Notes under the pieces: generated by a model
The model's input: only the letters and a program-made list of their open reading frames with translations
Told to the model about the DNA's origin: nothing
Database searches by the model: none
Made by a program: the position numbers and the translations under genes
Assembly: GCF_053078305.1 (NCBI RefSeq)
Contig: NZ_CP166879.1
Reading direction: 5' to 3' (one strand)
Length of the DNA stretch: 64,000 nucleotides
Shown: piece by piece, positions 9,641 to 19,321 of the stretch
Layout of the letters: each line of letters starts with the position of its first letter
Position numbering within the stretch: the first letter of the stretch is position 1

Positions 9641-12025
9641 TTAGAATGAAAGCCCTTCACCATCAGCCACAATCCTGTACCCCATCGCCTTATAACCCCG
9701 CTGGCGTTTATCCCACATTCTGAGCAGCACTGGATACGCGGTATCCACAAAATCAATGATCCTGACATCGCTTTTACCGGTATGCTCTCTGTGTAGACGT
9801 CCCGCATACTGCTGTAACGTCCCTTTCCATGACACAGGCATGGCAAGAATCAGCGTATCCAGCGGAGGGTGGTCAAATCCCTCACCAATAAGTCTGCCTG
9901 TTGACAACAAAATACGGGGAGAATCAGGAGGAAGAGCATTCAGCCCGGAAATCATCATAGTACGCTTTTTTTTCGATAATCGACTATGGAGAACAAAAGG
10001 CGACAATTTCAGTGTGTTCATCACTGAGGCTATATCATCCAGATGATCTGTACGTTCAGTCAGTACCAGAACTTTACGCCCCTGCCCAAAAGCTTTCATG
10101 GCTTCTTCAGCTATCGCCACCGTTCTGTCATGATCCAGAGCAATTTCTCTGAAAATATCCTGGATTCTCGCATCCGATGGTAAATGACCAGATGTAAAAC
10201 GGGAACGGGTCAGCACCTCCAGATTATGTGGGCTTTCCTTCGGGCGGGACGCTGTATGGCGAATGGCACCACAGTACATAAAAATAATGGGGTGCAGACC
10301 ATCCCGTCGGATTGGTGTTGCCGTCAGGCCAAGCAGATATCTGGCATTCGTTTCCTTCAGAATCGCAGAAAATGAAACCGCGCCAATATGATGGCACTCA
10401 TCCACAATGATTTGCCCATAATTCCTGACCAGAGGTTCAACTTCTCCGTGTCTGGATATGGACTGCACCACCGCAATATCAATATTGCCACAGGGTTTAT
10501 GTTTCCCTCCCCCGATAATACCAATACTGTCACCGGCCTGCAGAAACACCGCGAGACGCTCCTGCCACTGCTTCAGCAATTCAGTCCGGTGTACCAGTAT
10601 CAGTGTATTCACTTTCCGTCTGGCAATCACTGCCGCTGCGGTAACTGTCTTACCAAAAGCCGTTGGCGCACAAAGCACACCAGTGTCATAACGGAGTAAT
10701 GCCGAAACGGCCTCTTCCTGCTCCGCTCTGAGGTTTCCCATAAAAACGGCATTACATTCCGTCCCGGCAAATCGTTTATCGATTAATTCTGCAGCAATAT
10801 TGTTGTCCCTAAGGAAAGATAATACGCTGTCCAGACATCCCCGGGGCAACGCAATGTGTTGCGGGTAATTCTCCGCACAACCTATAACACGGGGCTTATT
10901 CCAGACTGACATACGCATTGCCTGAGCCTTATAAAACTCAGGGTTCGGAAATGCTGCCAGCCGAATAAGTCGGTTAATCAGCACCTGAGGTAATTGCGCT
11001 TTTTCGAAATAGATCTGATTTGCCAGCGTGATTTTCAGCGGTTCAGCAACAGCAAGATTCAGTCTGTTTCCTGATGATTTTTTCCCTTCCCATGGCGTAC
11101 CCAGGTCTTCTTCGTTGATAAAGTTCACATCCAGAGGATGGATACTTCCTGTAGCCCGTAATATCGTCGGTTCAATATCCTGCACATTCATCGGGAGCAC
11201 CGACGCAAGAAAAGCCCACTGATCAGGATGAGGCTGGAAATTCATATCAACAAAAACACTTCCCCCCGATGCACGCGGTCTTTTTTGCAGAGGTAACGCG
11301 ATAAGATTACCAAATCCTCCTTTTGGCATCGTATCCTGATTAGGAAATAATCGGTCATAAGAACTCAATTGCAGCTGTCGGGTCCGGCTGCACGTATAGC
11401 TAATAACAGCAGTCCCCAGACGGCGAGCTTCGCGGGCCGAAACTCGTGAAGCAAAAAATATCCAGACATGCGCTCCCTGACGTGAGCGGGATATTTCCAG
11501 CACAGCGGGTACACCCAGCTCATCACAGGCTCGCATGAACGCGGATGCATCCTTCTGCCATTCAGCTTCATCAAAATCAACAGCCAGAAAATAACAGGAA
11601 TCATCTTCCAGCAACGGATATAACCCGGCAGTATGCGTGCCTGCCAGATGCTGGTAGATGACAAGATCAGATACAGGAATCAACTGACGGTGAACGCAGT
11701 CCCCACATTTTATCCGGGGCTTACCGCATATTCCCAACTGCCATTCGTTAGCGCAGGCCGGCGAGTACCCTGATTTGCCGCTGGTTTTACTTTCCCATCT
11801 AAGTGCCCATACATCATCACGCCCACGAAACAACCGACGAAATAATGCAACCTTCTCGTCGGTGGATAATACAGAAACGCGCTGCACAGGAGTCTGCGGT
11901 TTACGTCTCCATTCAATCCCATGAGCTTCAAGTAATGAGACCAGACGGGCATTTTCTGCCCTCAATGCAGCTAATTCATCGCTGTCAGATTTATGAACCA
12001 TATTCGTTACCTGTATCCGATCCAC
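9641..12025 (-). CDS. Superfamily-2 DEAD/DEAH (ResIII-like) helicase with N-terminal Cys/His-rich, possibly primase-polymerase-like domain
   Basis: 794 aa; helicase motifs AFGKTV (Walker A), IIVDECHH (DExH), LGLTATP, GEGFD, QQYAGRLHR; N-terminal C-x-C...C-x2-C-x-H cluster and VDFD...GAHVWIFF pattern; stop lies 18 bp from the PRTase stop (convergent). Confidence 0.7.
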   Translation of the reverse strand: MDRIQVTNMVHKSDSDELAALRAENARLVSLLEAHGIEWRRKPQTPVQRVSVLSTDEKVALFRRLFRGRDDVWALRWESKTSGKSGYSPACANEWQLGICGKPRIKCGDCVHRQLIPVSDLVIYQHLAGTHTAGLYPLLEDDSCYFLAVDFDEAEWQKDASAFMRACDELGVPAVLEISRSRQGAHVWIFFASRVSAREARRLGTAVISYTCSRTRQLQLSSYDRLFPNQDTMPKGGFGNLIALPLQKRPRASGGSVFVDMNFQPHPDQWAFLASVLPMNVQDIEPTILRATGSIHPLDVNFINEEDLGTPWEGKKSSGNRLNLAVAEPLKITLANQIYFEKAQLPQVLINRLIRLAAFPNPEFYKAQAMRMSVWNKPRVIGCAENYPQHIALPRGCLDSVLSFLRDNNIAAELIDKRFAGTECNAVFMGNLRAEQEEAVSALLRYDTGVLCAPTAFGKTVTAAAVIARRKVNTLILVHRTELLKQWQERLAVFLQAGDSIGIIGGGKHKPCGNIDIAVVQSISRHGEVEPLVRNYGQIIVDECHHIGAVSFSAILKETNARYLLGLTATPIRRDGLHPIIFMYCGAIRHTASRPKESPHNLEVLTRSRFTSGHLPSDARIQDIFREIALDHDRTVAIAEEAMKAFGQGRKVLVLTERTDHLDDIASVMNTLKLSPFVLHSRLSKKKRTMMISGLNALPPDSPRILLSTGRLIGEGFDHPPLDTLILAMPVSWKGTLQQYAGRLHREHTGKSDVRIIDFVDTAYPVLLRMWDKRQRGYKAMGYRIVADGEGLSF

Positions 12026-13677: not shown

Positions 13678-15132
13678 TCAGAGGTCAAAGTTAGGTGCGA
13701 CATACCACGTTTTGTCGTCAATAAACTGTACAACTCTGTTTTGCTCATACAGTAAATCCAGTAACCAGTTGAGTTTATCTTTTTTACGGAAACGGTTCGG
13801 ACCACGCTGTAAAATGTCATTTTTTCTCATACAGCGTATCCCCTTCTCAATGCAACAGCTTTTTATCCAGTTGAAAAGTTCAAGCTCCTCTGGAATGAGT
13901 CGCATAGGTACGGTCAGTGCAGAGTTTTCAAACGTTAACGGACTGGATAACCGAATATACTCATCGCCGTACCATATTGCTAATTCTCTCGCCATTTCAG
14001 CAGTGTAGGGGGAAATGTCACCTTCCTCACCGCTAAAATGGTGAATAAGCCCTGCCAGTCTTGCCATATACTCTGCATTTTTAGCAGCATATTCTCTGAA
14101 GTCTCTTAAAGGCCCCAGAACCGACATCTTCGATTCCACATTGTTGTAATAGTCCGTCCAGATTCTGGCTGCCTGAGGAGAAAAGTGAAGGCAACGCCGC
14201 TCTCCCCTCATAGCCAGGCTTTCATCAATGAGTTCATTTATCCTCTGTTCAAACAAATCCTGATACTGTGATGAATAATTATCTCCGGTTATTATTATCC
14301 TTGTCCCCTGCGTTGATGTTGGTTGACACATCAAAAACCTTGCATGATGTCCTGACGTTTTCACAAGTTCTTTTTTTCGTGTACAAAAACCTTTGTGGTA
14401 AACATCAGGCTGAACCATCACCGATATCGTCAGTCTTGGCTCCTTCAAAAAAATTCCGGGAGATGATTTCCTGTCGATGAAAAGAGAACCACCATCCCAC
14501 AAAGAGTTAAGTATTCCCAGTTTACTCATTGCCCGGCTGTCAAAAATTATCCCACCTTCACTGGATACAAGAGCAAAAGAGCGGTTGCTATCAGAATAAT
14601 ATTTTAACATTCCCTCTATCGTTGTATCATTAAAAATTGTTCGATGTATCTGTGGTGGAACAGGACACTTATTCAGATGTGTTTTAAGCTCTGATTCTGT
14701 TGTCTTATAATCTTTACCGGTACGAATCTCTTTATGAAGTTTTGACTCCAGTGCTTTTTGTTTTTGCGCCCATATTTCCTTTTCTGTACTGTAACTCTCA
14801 ACCAGTTTCGCGTATTCTTCCGCCAGGGCTTCATCCCTGAGATAAAATGCTTTCATAAACACTTTATCCACGGTCGTTTTCCTTTCACCAGAATCAGCCA
14901 GAATCATAGAGTAAATATTAGAGGACCCACGTAAATTTCCTGGTCTGCACACATCAACCTGATTCTGACAGGCAATTGACATCGCTGTTAATGCTGCAGT
15001 TATCGCCATAGCTATAGGTGTCTGTGTATTCTTTTGAGTTTCAATTATTGCATTTCTCGCCAGCGGTGGCATTGCATATATCGGACAAGGATTTTCTGGT
15101 GCAAGTAAGCACATAAATGCCTCTCTTTTCAT
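13678..15132 (-). CDS. YfjI-like (DUF3987-type) protein of P4-like integrative elements
   Basis: 484 aa, directly downstream of alpA-like gene; size and context match CP4-57 yfjI. Confidence 0.5.
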   Translation of the reverse strand: MKREAFMCLLAPENPCPIYAMPPLARNAIIETQKNTQTPIAMAITAALTAMSIACQNQVDVCRPGNLRGSSNIYSMILADSGERKTTVDKVFMKAFYLRDEALAEEYAKLVESYSTEKEIWAQKQKALESKLHKEIRTGKDYKTTESELKTHLNKCPVPPQIHRTIFNDTTIEGMLKYYSDSNRSFALVSSEGGIIFDSRAMSKLGILNSLWDGGSLFIDRKSSPGIFLKEPRLTISVMVQPDVYHKGFCTRKKELVKTSGHHARFLMCQPTSTQGTRIIITGDNYSSQYQDLFEQRINELIDESLAMRGERRCLHFSPQAARIWTDYYNNVESKMSVLGPLRDFREYAAKNAEYMARLAGLIHHFSGEEGDISPYTAEMARELAIWYGDEYIRLSSPLTFENSALTVPMRLIPEELELFNWIKSCCIEKGIRCMRKNDILQRGPNRFRKKDKLNWLLDLLYEQNRVVQFIDDKTWYVAPNFDL

Positions 15133-15362: not shown

Positions 15363-15590
15363 TCAGGAATCAGCCAGAACCATAGTGTAAATATTAACGG
15401 GCCCACGTAAATTTCCGGGGTTGCACACGTCAATCTGATTCTGACAGGCAATTGACATCGCTGTTAATAATGATGTTGTAGTCATAGCCAGAGATGCTTT
15501 TTCATTGTGTTGAGTTTCAATTATTGCATTTCCAGTCATTGATGGTTGCGCATATACTGGATACGGAGTATCCGGTTTGATGTAAGACAT
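15363..15590 (-). pseudogene. Truncated duplicate of the yfjI-like 5' end
   Basis: 75 aa ORF; DNA 15363-15480 is a diverged copy of 14883-15000 (shared ...ctgattctgacaggcaattgacatcgctgttaat...); the protein repeats the NAIIETQ...AMSIACQNQ.DVC.PGNLRG block. Confidence 0.5.
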
Positions 15591-15695: not shown

Positions 15696-15923
15696 TCATC
15701 TGGTCTGTATCCAGCAGAGAAGGTCACTTAACAACCATCCGCAAGATTTCTTTCCGATAGACTTACGTGGTGGAAATGTTCCCTCCCGTTCAAGTTTCCA
15801 CGCTTGTGTACGAGAAATTGACGTGATCTCATATCGTTCCTTTTCACGTACCAGTCTGTCGCATTCAATCCCATAAGCTTTCAAAATGACCAGACGCTGT
15901 TCATCTGTTAATGGAAGCCACAT
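15696..15923 (-). CDS. alpA: AlpA-family prophage transcriptional regulator
   Basis: C-terminal ...ITSISRTQAWKLEREGTFPPRKSIGKKSCGWLLSDLLCWIQ is AlpA-like; likely ATG at 15923-15921 (MWLPLTDEQ) preceded by AGGAGGG; the track ORF begins upstream at a TTG (15944). Confidence 0.75.
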   Translation of the reverse strand: MWLPLTDEQRLVILKAYGIECDRLVREKERYEITSISRTQAWKLEREGTFPPRKSIGKKSCGWLLSDLLCWIQTR

Positions 15924-16614
15924 ACTACCCTCCTGATATATCAATACTTTTTATTTCCGGCATGAGCATGAAATGACTAAGTTTCCCGGATAAACAATGA
16001 GTGAAAGTCACTATCATTCATCCAGTCAACACCTTGCAAATAAAATGTAATACCATGATTTTTATAGGTCAAAATACTGAATTACAATATTAAAATGGCT
16101 TTTAATAGAAAAAATAAAGACATATAGAGCCAAATAAAAACAAGCCGCGACCAATAAAAACAAAAAATTAATATTAAAAATCCATTATGACGATTTTTGT
16201 TGACTAAAATTAGGTTTGGATATATAAATAAATCCATGTAAAATTCAAACAAGGCATGGAGGAGTCGCAGGAAGGTGAAATATTTCCATCTAATTTGTGA
16301 TAATCATCACAAAAATAAGCTACAACAAGCGGAGGAAAAGACAATCTGTTGCTGAACAGACAGAAGCAGGCTACGAATGATCGGAAAATGAAGCAAATAC
16401 GCTTATACAGAAGACGCAGAGGTAACTGACGGAGACAATCACAATCAGGAGAAAATTATCGTAAATAATGTATAAAATCTCAGGATATAAACAAATGTAC
16501 ACAAGCTATCCACGTAATCAGCGGCTGGCTCAGGATTAACGTTTCATTTCAGTGGACAACATCGATTCTGTCTGACAGCGGACCAATATGTAGCAAGCAG
16601 AAACTTCTGACATC

Positions 16615-18252
16615 ATGGTAACTCGGACAATGCAACAAAAGTATCAGTATGATCGTGTTTTATCCGGCGAACTCCACCCATTCCCTGGCATATACGAGGC
16701 GGTTTCCGAACAAATCCTTTTGCTCATTTTTAAAGCACGTCAACTATATCAGGATCCAGAATATCGCCCCTGGTTTGAAGAACAGCACAGAGTACTCTCT
16801 GCATTACGTGCCAATACAGAGCTCCTGAGAATCTTTAGAGAACAAAGAAGCGCTGAAGAACCAAAGCTTACTATTGAAGAGTCTACCTCCCCCCAACCCA
16901 CTCCTTCTGCTCTTACAGATGCGCTTAATGTGATGTGCCATATATACAATGGTTTTGATGAAGGAAATATCAGTCTGAAAACCTGGGGGGCGATGCAAGA
17001 GGTACAGACAACATCAACCTTTATCAGCCCAGGACCGAGAACCTGGAAAACACCTGAACTGGCAAAGTTTGTAGGAGATGATTTATTTAATATTCTGACT
17101 GAATGTAAGGCCTGGAGTTCACCAATTCCAGCAGAAACCCGACAGGGGTATTGCCATCAGGATCTGTCTGTTGCACACTCCTGCACCTCAGAGTTACTGG
17201 CACACCTGAATCAATATCATGAAATTGATGAATCAGCAATACTTGCCAGAGTTATTGGTATAACAGTTAACGGATTCTACAAGAAAAATAATACAGACCT
17301 TCCAGAATGGCTATCCCCCTTTAAAGAGGAACATAAAATATTCAGAGATTGTCCGGAGCAAAATACCGGGGATGTAATCAGACGGAAAGAACAACTGTTG
17401 AAAACAGGACGTACAGAATTCGTGAATAATTTGTGTCGGGTCGCCAACTGGTATGAAATTGAGTCAATATACGATGAATACGTCCGTCTTTATGCCAATG
17501 AAATCATTGACTGGTTCAACAAAACCATGAAGTATTTTAAACCAACAGATTTTATCCGATATACATGGAAATTCGCAACAGTTACTCCGGATAAAGATAC
17601 AGAAACCGGGCATACAACTGCATGGGAAAAGGATTATTGCCAGATAACCATACAACGTGATGAACTTCTGAGGTTGATTCACACCAATACCCTTCAGGAT
17701 GCAGTAATTTATCTTTGTCATTGTCTGCAGAAGGAATACAAGAAATCATCCCAAAATGAGATAGAGTTCCCAGGAATAAAACCTCCGACATCAGAGAGTA
17801 AAATTAATATAACAAATAATATTAAATTTCATTCTCTCCTGGAGCTCAGTAAAGATAATGAGAAGCGTCTGGAAACATTTCAAAAATGGTATGAAAAAAA
17901 TAAAGTTTTGTTAGAAAGTCATAAACAAAAACGAACAGAGAAGATTGACGTTGCCGTACGACTTGTAGGGCTGAAAGCCTATGATCTGCATGAAGGGATT
18001 CCGGATAGTCCAAAACGAAAAGTTAAAGATGGCATAAATGAAGACATCAAAGCCGATACCAGTTTACGCCTGTCAAAGACAAATATAAGTGATACGTCGC
18101 TAAACCGTTATCGCCGCACTGTTAAGGAGATTATCAATAACGAAATTGACGCATTCCTGTTGGAACAGAAGAAAAAAAATAAAAGATTTCCCTACAGTGA
18201 AGATAGAGATGTGATTCGACCTTTATGGGGAAAATGCCTGACCGGGCAGTAG
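16615..18252 (+). CDS. Hypothetical protein (545 aa), AT-rich, no recognisable motif
   Basis: Long ATG-initiated ORF in a low-GC region between alpA and thrW; product unknown. Confidence 0.45.
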   Translation: MVTRTMQQKYQYDRVLSGELHPFPGIYEAVSEQILLLIFKARQLYQDPEYRPWFEEQHRVLSALRANTELLRIFREQRSAEEPKLTIEESTSPQPTPSALTDALNVMCHIYNGFDEGNISLKTWGAMQEVQTTSTFISPGPRTWKTPELAKFVGDDLFNILTECKAWSSPIPAETRQGYCHQDLSVAHSCTSELLAHLNQYHEIDESAILARVIGITVNGFYKKNNTDLPEWLSPFKEEHKIFRDCPEQNTGDVIRRKEQLLKTGRTEFVNNLCRVANWYEIESIYDEYVRLYANEIIDWFNKTMKYFKPTDFIRYTWKFATVTPDKDTETGHTTAWEKDYCQITIQRDELLRLIHTNTLQDAVIYLCHCLQKEYKKSSQNEIEFPGIKPPTSESKINITNNIKFHSLLELSKDNEKRLETFQKWYEKNKVLLESHKQKRTEKIDVAVRLVGLKAYDLHEGIPDSPKRKVKDGINEDIKADTSLRLSKTNISDTSLNRYRRTVKEIINNEIDAFLLEQKKKNKRFPYSEDRDVIRPLWGKCLTGQ

Positions 18253-18338
18253 ATCACAGATGGGATAACATCCCGGTTATCCCCTGTTTGTTCTGCTTCA
18301 GGTTGCCAGAGCTCCAGGAACACGAGGCAATCGGCAAA

Positions 18339-18935
18339 TTATGCGGCTTTTCCATTAACAGATTCGACCACAAGAACAACACCGTGTTTGTTTCGATCAG
18401 GATGTTCACTCCAGATTTCTGATTCAGGAATACTTTCCCCATCATAGCAGATCCGATCACCATCAAACGGATAATACCGTGCGGAATCTGTATCTAAGAT
18501 AAACACCTTAAGATTCGTTGAACGACGCGCTATATGCTGCCAGAGGGCTTTACCTCCTTCATATTGCTCGTTATCACTTAATAGTATAACGCCTGCTTTT
18601 GTGGCTATTGTTTCATAAACAAACGTAGCAAGGCTAACATCACGTACAGCGCCATCGACAACAATCCCTTCAATCTGAGCAACGTCCTGTTCTTCCCAGA
18701 ATTTCCGGACAACCCCCCCTTCAAGCTGTGAACGACGCTGAAGCTCCAGAGTGGCAACAACCTTATAGCGAATATCACCATCAATAACAGAAGGTGCAGC
18801 TTCGATTACCGCAGCGAACGGAGTCTTTGGATCCCAGATGATCTGGTAAAGCACACCCTGAATAGTTACTCCATCCAGTATCGAAAAACGACGAGCTACA
18901 GTAGCAGGGGAGTAAGACATTGGAATGACAGCCAT
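18339..18935 (-). CDS. Hypothetical protein (198 aa) next to the tRNA attachment site; not integrase-like
   Basis: ORF convergent with the 545-aa gene; occupies the position usually held by an integrase but is too short and shows no tyrosine-recombinase pattern. Confidence 0.4.
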   Translation of the reverse strand: MAVIPMSYSPATVARRFSILDGVTIQGVLYQIIWDPKTPFAAVIEAAPSVIDGDIRYKVVATLELQRRSQLEGGVVRKFWEEQDVAQIEGIVVDGAVRDVSLATFVYETIATKAGVILLSDNEQYEGGKALWQHIARRSTNLKVFILDTDSARYYPFDGDRICYDGESIPESEIWSEHPDRNKHGVVLVVESVNGKAA

Positions 18936-19245
18936 TTTATGGCCTAAAATTTGAAAACATCAGTATCAATACTGACCTCATCAGTCTGAGCATATATTGA
19001 TAAAGTTTTTATGTTTACACTCAATAAATACCTTGCTAAACAACTAATAGCGATGTCTACATTGCCATTCGACATGCTTACAATTTTTGTCAACAAGAAA
19101 GTGAATTTATATCAACGGTAAGAAGTAAACACGAGGACACCAAAACCAAATGTATACACTTTTGTGCTTTGTGTCCCCTGTGTGTACCCAAATGACAAAC
19201 TGCAAGAAAATCTAGGCACACACTTATCTAACTTATTGATTTAAA

Positions 19246-19321
19246 TGGTGCCGATAATAGGAGTCGAACCTACGACCTTCGCATTACGAATGCGCTGCTC
19301 TACCAACTGAGCTATATCGGC
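19246..19321 (-). tRNA. thrW: tRNA-Thr (anticodon CGT)
   Basis: Reverse complement reads GCCGATATAGCTCAGTTGGTAGAGCAGCGCATTCGTAATGCGAAGGTCGTAGGTTCGACTCCTATTATCGGCACCA, 76 nt with cloverleaf-compatible stems and CCA end. Confidence 0.9.

Follow-up and report, generated by a model that had tools for sequence, protein, structure and literature searches.

Which genes occupy the space between alpA and the tRNA gene thrW at the end of an Escherichia coli genomic island, where an integrase would be expected, and what might they do? The question is raised by a stretch of 64,000 nucleotides of E. coli chromosome (NCBI RefSeq assembly GCF_053078305.1, contig NZ_CP166879.1), hereafter called the window, in which two convergent open reading frames (ORFs) of 545 and 198 amino acids (aa) lie between the regulator gene alpA and thrW, with proA, proB, and phoE to the right of thrW. 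An earlier note on this DNA had described them as an orphan pair in the place of an integrase and as possible defense or anti-defense cargo. The best-supported reading is that the segment forms the integrase-proximal accessory end of an immobilized island, similar to P4 or to the phage-inducible chromosomal islands (PICIs), and carries two independently mobile genes. For the 545-aa gene, a function in inter-element or anti-phage conflict is given a probability of about one half.

The two genes and the island end at thrW

The 545-aa ORF (16615-18252, plus strand) and the 198-aa ORF (18339-18935, minus strand) both start with ATG and run toward each other, leaving 86 bp between them. The two are separated by a terminator-like hairpin (18262-18283, plus strand), in which a T-rich run comes after GGGATAAC...GTTATCCC; as a terminator, it is a match to the consensus only. 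The coordinates and layout of this AT-rich pair are as first reported. Both ORFs are genuine genes under purifying selection. In a survey of 5426 complete E. coli genomes, 346 contain one match that covers at least 80% of the segment 15900-19400, and in all 30 listed matches among these genomes both ORFs are intact and annotated as "hypothetical protein." Measured against its copy in a sibling island (L008), the 545-aa gene has a ratio of nonsynonymous to synonymous substitution rates (dN/dS) of 0.46. The corresponding value of the 198-aa gene is 0.09, and a comparison with the P1-like phage-plasmid RCS47, in which dS is saturated, gave 0.04. The possibility that either ORF lacks coding signatures is, hence, contradicted by purifying selection and by the intact state of both genes in hundreds of genomes.

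An integrase is indeed absent between alpA and thrW. A tblastn search of the 64-kb window with the 438-aa integrase of a sibling island gave a best E value of 1.2, and in a strain of 99.9% identity, the Prokaryotic Genome Annotation Pipeline (PGAP) annotates no integrase anywhere from cdiA to thrW. A remnant beside thrW was considered and rejected, the search with the sibling integrase being empty and the window holding no second copy of the thrW 3' end, that is, no attR copy. The further idea that the pair sits where the integrase should be did not hold, as judged by three sibling variants of the island in E. coli. These feature the order int (438 aa), 198-aa gene, a gene of 534-542 aa, a gap of approximately 730-780 bp, and alpA, with a DUF3987 gene after alpA in two of the three; they occupy the yqjH/PadR/aer site, next to genes for a siderophore-interacting protein and PadR, aer, and patA. 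Because the sibling islands carry int beside the same two genes, the pair does not replace the integrase, which is an extra gene lacking at thrW. In its native setting, this cargo lies beside the integrase; the island at thrW lacks an integrase of its own.

The DNA homology between the window and the sibling island extends from 16524 to 18939 and comprises just the 545-aa and 198-aa genes; it ends 4 bp past the start codon of the 198-aa gene and excludes the 310 bp up to thrW. This spacer (18936-19245) is specific to the thrW version of the island, contains no integrase remnant, presumably harbors the promoter of the 198-aa gene, and is present in 278 of the 5426 genomes, each time as a single copy. 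The chromosomal anchor of the island is thrW itself, called as tRNA-Thr(CGT) at 19246-19321 on the minus strand. In strain 167 (L036/L037, NZ_CM132970.1 3693341-3699130), which carries an intact, 84%-identity variant of the 545-aa gene, a gene of the defense system Avs2 (AVAST type 2) and lambdoid tail genes follow beyond the 310-bp spacer. The outer side of the locus is itself variable because these genes replace thrW there.

On the opposite side, alpA (15696-15944, minus strand; PGAP equivalent 15696-15923) encodes an AlpA-family helix-turn-helix (HTH) regulator (Pfam Phage_AlpA, E 2.1e-13). It is divergent from the 545-aa gene and heads a leftward operon of alpA, DUF3987, and Gp2. The leftward content of the island consists of a DUF3987 fragment, the YfjI/DUF3987 gene, an inovirus-Gp2-type gene, TOTE, Shosta, cdiB, and cdiA. 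A 75-aa ORF at 15363-15590 on the minus strand repeats the N-terminus of the YfjI/DUF3987 protein (13678-15132) and is a DUF3987 pseudogene fragment according to PGAP—a sign of rearrangement just downstream of alpA.

The assignment to P4-like or PICI-type satellites is based on the joint presence of AlpA (Phage_AlpA, E 2e-13) and DUF3987 (E 7e-84). A tyrosine integrase beside the attachment site, a further hallmark of these satellites, is found in the sibling islands and not in the window. Unlike P4, the thrW island lacks an integrase, and neither Psu, Delta, or Sid nor PICI morphogenesis genes were noticed in the PGAP annotation of the region, in which no search was aimed at them; it is, thus, not a bona fide P4 element. 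In the 99.9%-identical strain, the composite thrW island measures approximately 47 kb and has a tyrosine recombinase at its distal end beside the pao genes. It contains CbtA/CbeA, RadC, an antirestriction gene, Ag43, a methyltransferase-helicase pair, and cdiBAI. The island CP4-6 of K-12 likewise ends with a tyrosine recombinase, and the recombinase approximately 47 kb away is of the CP4-6 type. The GC content is 0.38-0.44 across the segment versus 0.53-0.56 in the neighboring proA/proB core, and the earlier placement of the segment in the tRNA-proximal slot of a P4/PICI-like island was confirmed: It is accessory, horizontally acquired DNA. A candidate for an excised circular form, the 11.7-kb Salmonella "plasmid" CP101363.1, was discarded; it is a linear chromosomal contig with flanking chromosomal genes.

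On E. coli chromosomes, either gene is nearly always found next to the other; the 545-aa gene takes up 716 places there, the 198-aa gene 730. The 716 places are distributed over 689 genomes, approximately 13% of the complete E. coli genomes; one genome (H174) keeps just the final 220 bp of the 545-aa gene. Beside each of four 545-aa variants in E. coli (57-100% identity), the 198-aa gene is convergent at a distance of 83-93 bp. Outside E. coli and Salmonella, a 198-aa homologue accompanies the 545-aa gene in none of the nine other contexts examined, and no 545-aa homologue was found in the 198-aa contexts examined, which comprise phage-plasmids, an F-like plasmid, and another chromosomal site. 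Evolutionary rates differ as well: At the protein level, the island copies of int are 99% identical, those of the 198-aa protein 91-99%, and those of AlpA 81-91%, compared with only 57-77% in the 545-aa protein, whose gene is the fastest-evolving of the island backbone. Because each gene is found without the other outside E. coli and Salmonella and their histories differ, we conclude that two separate accessory genes came to lie side by side in a single island lineage; the functional pair suggested by their first description is not supported.

The two protein families and the upstream cassette of the 545-aa gene

Neither protein is an orphan, as both had been labeled: The 545-aa family comprises 37 clusters at 90% identity across gamma-proteobacteria, to which it is restricted, and the 198-aa family more than 150 clusters. 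For the latter, a further homologue search that started from a family alignment yielded largely those close relatives again. The named sources of the 545-aa family are E. coli, Salmonella, Klebsiella, Citrobacter, Raoultella, Serratia, Dickeya, Pectobacterium, Proteus, Vibrio, and Aeromonas. When 1.84 billion representative proteins were searched with a profile, 41 clusters only were returned, all of them the family itself; approximately 15 of these are full length (490-560 aa), and fusion to another domain occurs in none. The 545-aa protein, its 36 aligned relatives, and isolated fragments gave no match in Pfam, NCBIfam, PADLOC, or PHROG. The PDB, searched by phmmer and with a profile, was equally empty, and no relative was found in BFVD. 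Hence, neither sequence nor predicted structure links this all-alpha family to a known relative. The RefSeq accessions of the 545-aa and 198-aa proteins are absent from the searchable literature.

Across 17 sequences with identities down to 17%, the residues E32, Q33, R42, D115, R176, Y179, H181, and L184 are invariant, as are W318, I346, D457, S492, R498, P536, and W538 in the C-terminal direction, and the copy in the window retains the family-wide invariant residues. The R176-x4-H181 motif fits the Rx4-6H form of HEPN proteins and encloses a near-invariant G178 (at least 90%) besides the invariant Y179. However, neither the HEPN four-helix fold nor profile similarity to it was found for the 545-aa protein. 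The invariant stretch S492-x-S/T-L/I-x-R498 resembles the start of an HTH recognition helix, and no HTH profile matched the protein, isolated C-terminal fragments included. Since neither motif has profile or fold support, both are offered as possible readings of the conserved residues.

The genomic contexts of the family are diverse. In P2-like prophages of Klebsiella, the gene lies between gpS and gpV on the strand opposite to the late genes; in an integrative and conjugative element (ICE) of Proteus, it lies between traC and traU. A Vibrio island carries it between int and alpA, and so does another int–alpA island with a copy of 21% identity. On IncFII and other plasmids of Klebsiella, Citrobacter, and Raoultella, it is located beside a type II restriction-modification system and DUF4145. 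In addition, it occurs in two-gene islets between housekeeping genes of Serratia fonticola and of another genome.

In every locus outside E. coli, the gene is preceded by an upstream region of 331-375 bp with a GC content of 0.22-0.35 and, beyond it, by a small divergent gene. The partners fall into at least three unrelated types. Acidic proteins of 137-149 aa with approximately 30% Asp and Glu occur on the Klebsiella IncFII plasmid (L028 6200-6649) and in the Klebsiella P2-like prophage and the Vibrio island (L004 7225-7662 and L012 7245-7658), on the minus strand in all three; they match no family, and their composition suggests a DNA mimic or an antitoxin. Gly/Ala-rich proteins of approximately 100-108 aa, encoded divergently from the large gene, are found in Serratia (L022 6330-6653), L030 (5891-6217), L031 (6304-6627), and L032 (1261-1560), all on the minus strand. 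These copies are 70-88% identical to each other, and the large proteins beside them are merely 21-44% identical to the 545-aa protein of the window. Their sequence starts as MF..L.D..ENPIKS.AIAAATVATGG... and continues in GxxxG-like repeats; a weak match to PADLOC PDC-M09A is possibly compositional, and the protein may be a membrane effector or a microcin-like peptide. A distinct 118-aa protein takes the third place in Proteus. A single conserved partner of the 545-aa gene was, hence, rejected, as none of the types occurs in E. coli.

The E. coli copies feature a longer AT-rich upstream region of 670-780 bp. In the window, it measures 670 bp (15945-16614; GC 0.34) between alpA and the 545-aa gene, and its non-coding nature, as first described, was borne out: It contains no credible or conserved ORF. 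An alignment of the four E. coli variants revealed it to be indel-rich and poorly conserved, and a search of Rfam for a hidden noncoding RNA gave no family match. A hidden small partner gene was ruled out by negative tblastn searches with all partner proteins from the other species.

The upstream regions of distant family members share a palindrome, TGTGAT-N4-ATCACA, in full agreement with TGTGA-N6-TCACA, the consensus site of CRP. Perfect copies lie in the window (TGTGATAATCATCACA, 16 bp, 16296-16311, putatively a CRP-type site), in Serratia (L022 6971-6986), in L031 (6959-6974), and in the Klebsiella plasmid (L028 6956-6971). Two E. coli variants deviate from it by one mismatch, and the copies of Vibrio and Proteus, placed at the same position, by two. 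Shuffled regions reach at most one mismatch with a probability of 0.002 per region, and the perfect palindrome is unique within the 64-kb window as well as within each 15-17-kb locus having one. Generic AT-rich repeats in the same regions were judged uninformative; this motif alone exceeded the shuffles. In the loci outside E. coli, the palindrome is placed 28-42 nt before the ATG (30-42 nt for the perfect copies of Serratia, L031, and the Klebsiella plasmid), directly ahead of the Shine-Dalgarno sequence and, thus, in an operator-like position. Members of the E. coli clade have the palindrome 319-356 nt upstream of the ATG, and the intervening DNA is unconserved and indel-rich. No palindrome was found at the P2-prophage copy. 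CRP would be the simpler binder, since the palindrome equals the consensus of this host protein.

The 198-aa protein is predicted to be a divergent GNAT-type acyltransferase and, hence, a new member of a known superfamily. The earlier statement that no motif can be recognized falls for the 198-aa protein, which features the GNAT alpha/beta fold with its beta4-alpha3-beta5-alpha4 core. Motif A (beta4-alpha3; Q/R-x-x-G-x-G/A in the superfamily, where it binds the acyl-CoA pyrophosphate) reads R-D-[VIF]-G-L-A in 12 of 15 aligned family members; with this R-x-x-G-x-A pattern, the family resembles GNAT proteins such as HAT1 (1bob), ESCO1 (4mxe), AtaT (6gtp), and Mom of phage Mu (8bv8). The copy in the window and a second thrW-type copy read R98-D-V-S101-L-A103 instead, with Ser for the near-invariant Gly (G101S), which may reflect altered cofactor binding or early decay. 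Unlike in the superfamily at large, the similarity stays below the Pfam threshold: The protein of the window does not match Acetyltransf_1, and 7 of the 15 relatives match it weakly with a best E value of 0.021, below the gathering cut-off. A 40%-identical homologue on a small Atlantibacter plasmid is annotated as GNAT.

The 198-aa protein also matches phrog_7522 (E 5e-124), and its residues 4-66 share 43% identity with PmgF of phage P1 (98 aa; "putative morphogenetic function"). The P1-like phage-plasmids RCS47 and SJ46 carry a full 198-aa version with 87% identity in the pmgF slot after bplB. In contrast, PmgF of P1 is half as long and lacks the C-terminal part that bears the GNAT motif. According to P1 annotation notes, the "morphogenetic" name is positional, not experimental, and a literature search for "pmgF" found nothing relevant among the papers listed. 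Further members of the family are located in the leading region of an F-like plasmid near ArdB/KlcA and at a site adjoining a bacteriocin exporter. In addition to its chromosomal places, the gene occurs 129 times on plasmids of the complete E. coli genomes. This niche of phage-plasmids, plasmid leading regions, and integrase-proximal island slots is unusual compared with housekeeping GNATs; plasmid leading regions are places where anti-defense genes concentrate. In strain 167, the 198-aa gene is frameshifted beside the intact 545-aa gene.

Function of the locus and its alternatives

Accessory defense hotspots have been described for P4-like satellites, PICIs, and P2-like phages, and many hotspot genes of unknown function proved antiviral on testing (Rousset et al. 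2022, PMC9122126; Moura de Sousa et al. 2026, bioRxiv 10.64898/2026.02.27.708500). The thrW locus resembles these hotspots in having cargo beside the integrase of an island of the AlpA/primase type, homologues in the late/tail region of P2-like phages, and genes that undergo rapid exchange in an otherwise conserved frame. The text of those papers does not name the 545-aa family among its systems, nor does PADLOC have a model for it; thrW is not mentioned in the E. coli defense-island paper. Two defense modules are part of the same island, 4.6-8.5 kb to the left of the locus. These are the Shosta system, with ShosA (8101-9000; DprA-like, E 4e-103) and ShosT (8997-9623; E 2e-50), and, adjoining it, the 794-aa primase-helicase of a TOTE conflict system, with an archaeo-eukaryotic-type primase (AEP; 9641-12025).

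Whether the segment is defense or anti-defense cargo, as had been proposed, is answered only in part. The nearby Shosta and TOTE systems and the Avs2 gene abutting the 198-aa gene elsewhere speak for it by their context; against it, the models of PADLOC-DB v2.0.0 (E <= 0.1) strongly matched ShosT, ShosA, and PrimPol in the adjacent genes and returned no family for either the 545-aa or the 198-aa protein. The conflict function at even odds is argued for the 545-aa gene because of its hotspot-hopping distribution, its self-contained regulated cassette, and its very fast evolution in a conserved frame. Further support comes from the defense neighbors (Shosta and TOTE here, restriction-modification on plasmids, Avs2 in strain 167) and from published work in which phage resistance was often traced to unannotated genes of P4/P2 hotspots (bioRxiv 10.64898/2026.02.27.708500).

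The 545-aa gene travels as a cassette consisting of its own AT-rich upstream region, often with the CRP-consensus palindrome, and the ORF, and this cassette turns up at accessory hotspots in widely differing mobile elements. In such a scenario, the protein would be made from a separate, regulated promoter and would most likely be directed against phages or other mobile genetic elements (MGEs) and might act via the invariant polar residues E32/Q33, R42, D115, and R176-x4-H181, the last of which forms a motif like that of HEPN-type ribonucleases. The likeness to these enzymes, known from abortive-infection and toxin-antitoxin systems, consists of the invariant motif, the all-alpha structure, and the mobile accessory slots and is restricted to the motif level; the probability of a HEPN-like catalytic mechanism is put at far below even. 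In some lineages, the protein would work with a small divergent partner, Gly/Ala-rich and membrane-type or acidic, and in E. coli without one. A bolder and tentative proposal, with the odds against it, is that the protein founds an unrecognized all-alpha family of anti-phage or anti-MGE immunity that acts alone in E. coli or with interchangeable partners elsewhere and is gated by the palindrome, which would tie immunity to either cAMP/CRP status or autoregulation. Independently of the 545-aa protein, the 198-aa protein would acylate a target in the host or a competitor, for example in anti-defense or host takeover.

Several observations weigh against the conflict reading. At the level of homology, no link of either protein to defense is apparent and PADLOC is negative; the position between int and alpA in three unrelated island lineages, together with the divergence from alpA, fits a role in the regulatory backbone; and the near-constant adjacency in E. 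coli (716/730) may leave a functional link between the two genes in this lineage. In addition, the acyltransferase may be decaying at the thrW site because of the Ser for the near-invariant Gly in motif A and the frameshift in one strain.

The regulatory alternative makes the 545-aa protein a sensor-regulator analogous to the Stl-type repressors of Staphylococcus aureus pathogenicity islands (SaPIs). Through an HTH-like module near its C-terminus, the 545-aa protein would bind the palindrome and thereby govern the divergent promoter—that of the alpA-DUF3987 replication/activation operon in E. coli and those of small effector genes elsewhere. Rapid evolution would then reflect an arms race with phage-encoded inducers. 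As in the SaPIs, the gene lies between int and a divergent activation/replication operon, with a palindrome in the shared regulatory region, and diverges extremely between otherwise near-identical islands, being the fastest-evolving of the backbone. It is always divergent from its upstream neighbor across the AT-rich region, the partner genes vary beside a constant large gene, the palindrome just before the Shine-Dalgarno sequence occupies an operator and not an activator position, and S492-x-S/T-L/I-x-R498 recalls the start of a recognition helix. However, the 545-aa protein is about twice as large as Stl and lacks a detectable HTH profile even in isolated C-terminal fragments, and CRP would be the simpler binder of the palindrome, which in E. 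coli stands approximately 319-356 bp from the ATG across unconserved DNA and is missing from the P2-prophage copy. Homologues also reside in elements and islets that have no satellite operon to regulate; a satellite master repressor would be unexpected within the tail operon of a P2-like phage, in the transfer region of an ICE, or in two-gene islets. This role, the main rival of the conflict reading, is considered unlikely.

Less likely again is a single two-component system, for example a GNAT toxin or modifier that the 545-aa sensor controls or targets. The convergent neighborhood of all four E. coli variants at 83-93 bp and the near-equal place counts would suit it, yet nine 545-aa contexts and the phage-plasmid, F-like plasmid, and other chromosomal contexts of the 198-aa gene lack the respective other gene, the evolutionary rates are very different, and in strain 167 a 198-aa pseudogene accompanies an intact 545-aa gene. 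Because the genes are convergent, they are not co-transcribed, which counts against this system as well. That the segment is inert debris of a decayed island, with ORFs hitch-hiking beside thrW and lacking a current function, is highly improbable. Such decay would be in line with the missing integrase and attR copy in the window, the DUF3987 pseudogene fragment, G101S in the thrW copies, the frameshift in one genome, and the 220-bp remainder in H174. It is opposed by the purifying selection on both ORFs and their intact state in hundreds of genomes, by the family-wide invariant residues kept in the 545-aa copy of the window, and by the retention of the same genes on active P2-like prophages, P1-like phage-plasmids, ICEs, and conjugative plasmids.

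Cargo in hotspots of mobile elements is of a well-known kind; the 545-aa family itself is new, as judged by sequence and structure searches and by the literature under its accessions. Should it prove to be a defense or inter-element conflict gene, it would constitute a new structural class for bacterial immunity, with homologues on P2-like prophages, ICEs, and IncF plasmids of Klebsiella, Proteus, Vibrio, and Serratia and in approximately 13% of E. coli genomes. The locus illustrates that integrase-proximal cargo outlives the immobilization of its island and that cargo cassettes hop among unrelated mobile elements with their own regulatory region. It also illustrates how one predicted GNAT enzyme is common to phage-plasmids, plasmid leading regions, and islands.

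Additional modules of the window

A contact-dependent inhibition locus extends over positions 1-7230 of the window. It comprises cdiB (ShlB/FhaC family; 5746-7230, minus strand) and the 3' part only of a very large cdiA, which runs off the left end. The locus is a separate module of the composite island because of its GC content of 0.55-0.59. At the other end of the window, blocks with a GC content of 0.33-0.43 between 41000 and 62000 correspond to a type VI secretion system accessory cluster of other E. coli and encode VgrG/TssI, PAAR-like, DUF4150, DUF2169, and several hypothetical proteins. Part of this region is rare, since at most 72% of it is covered in any complete genome.

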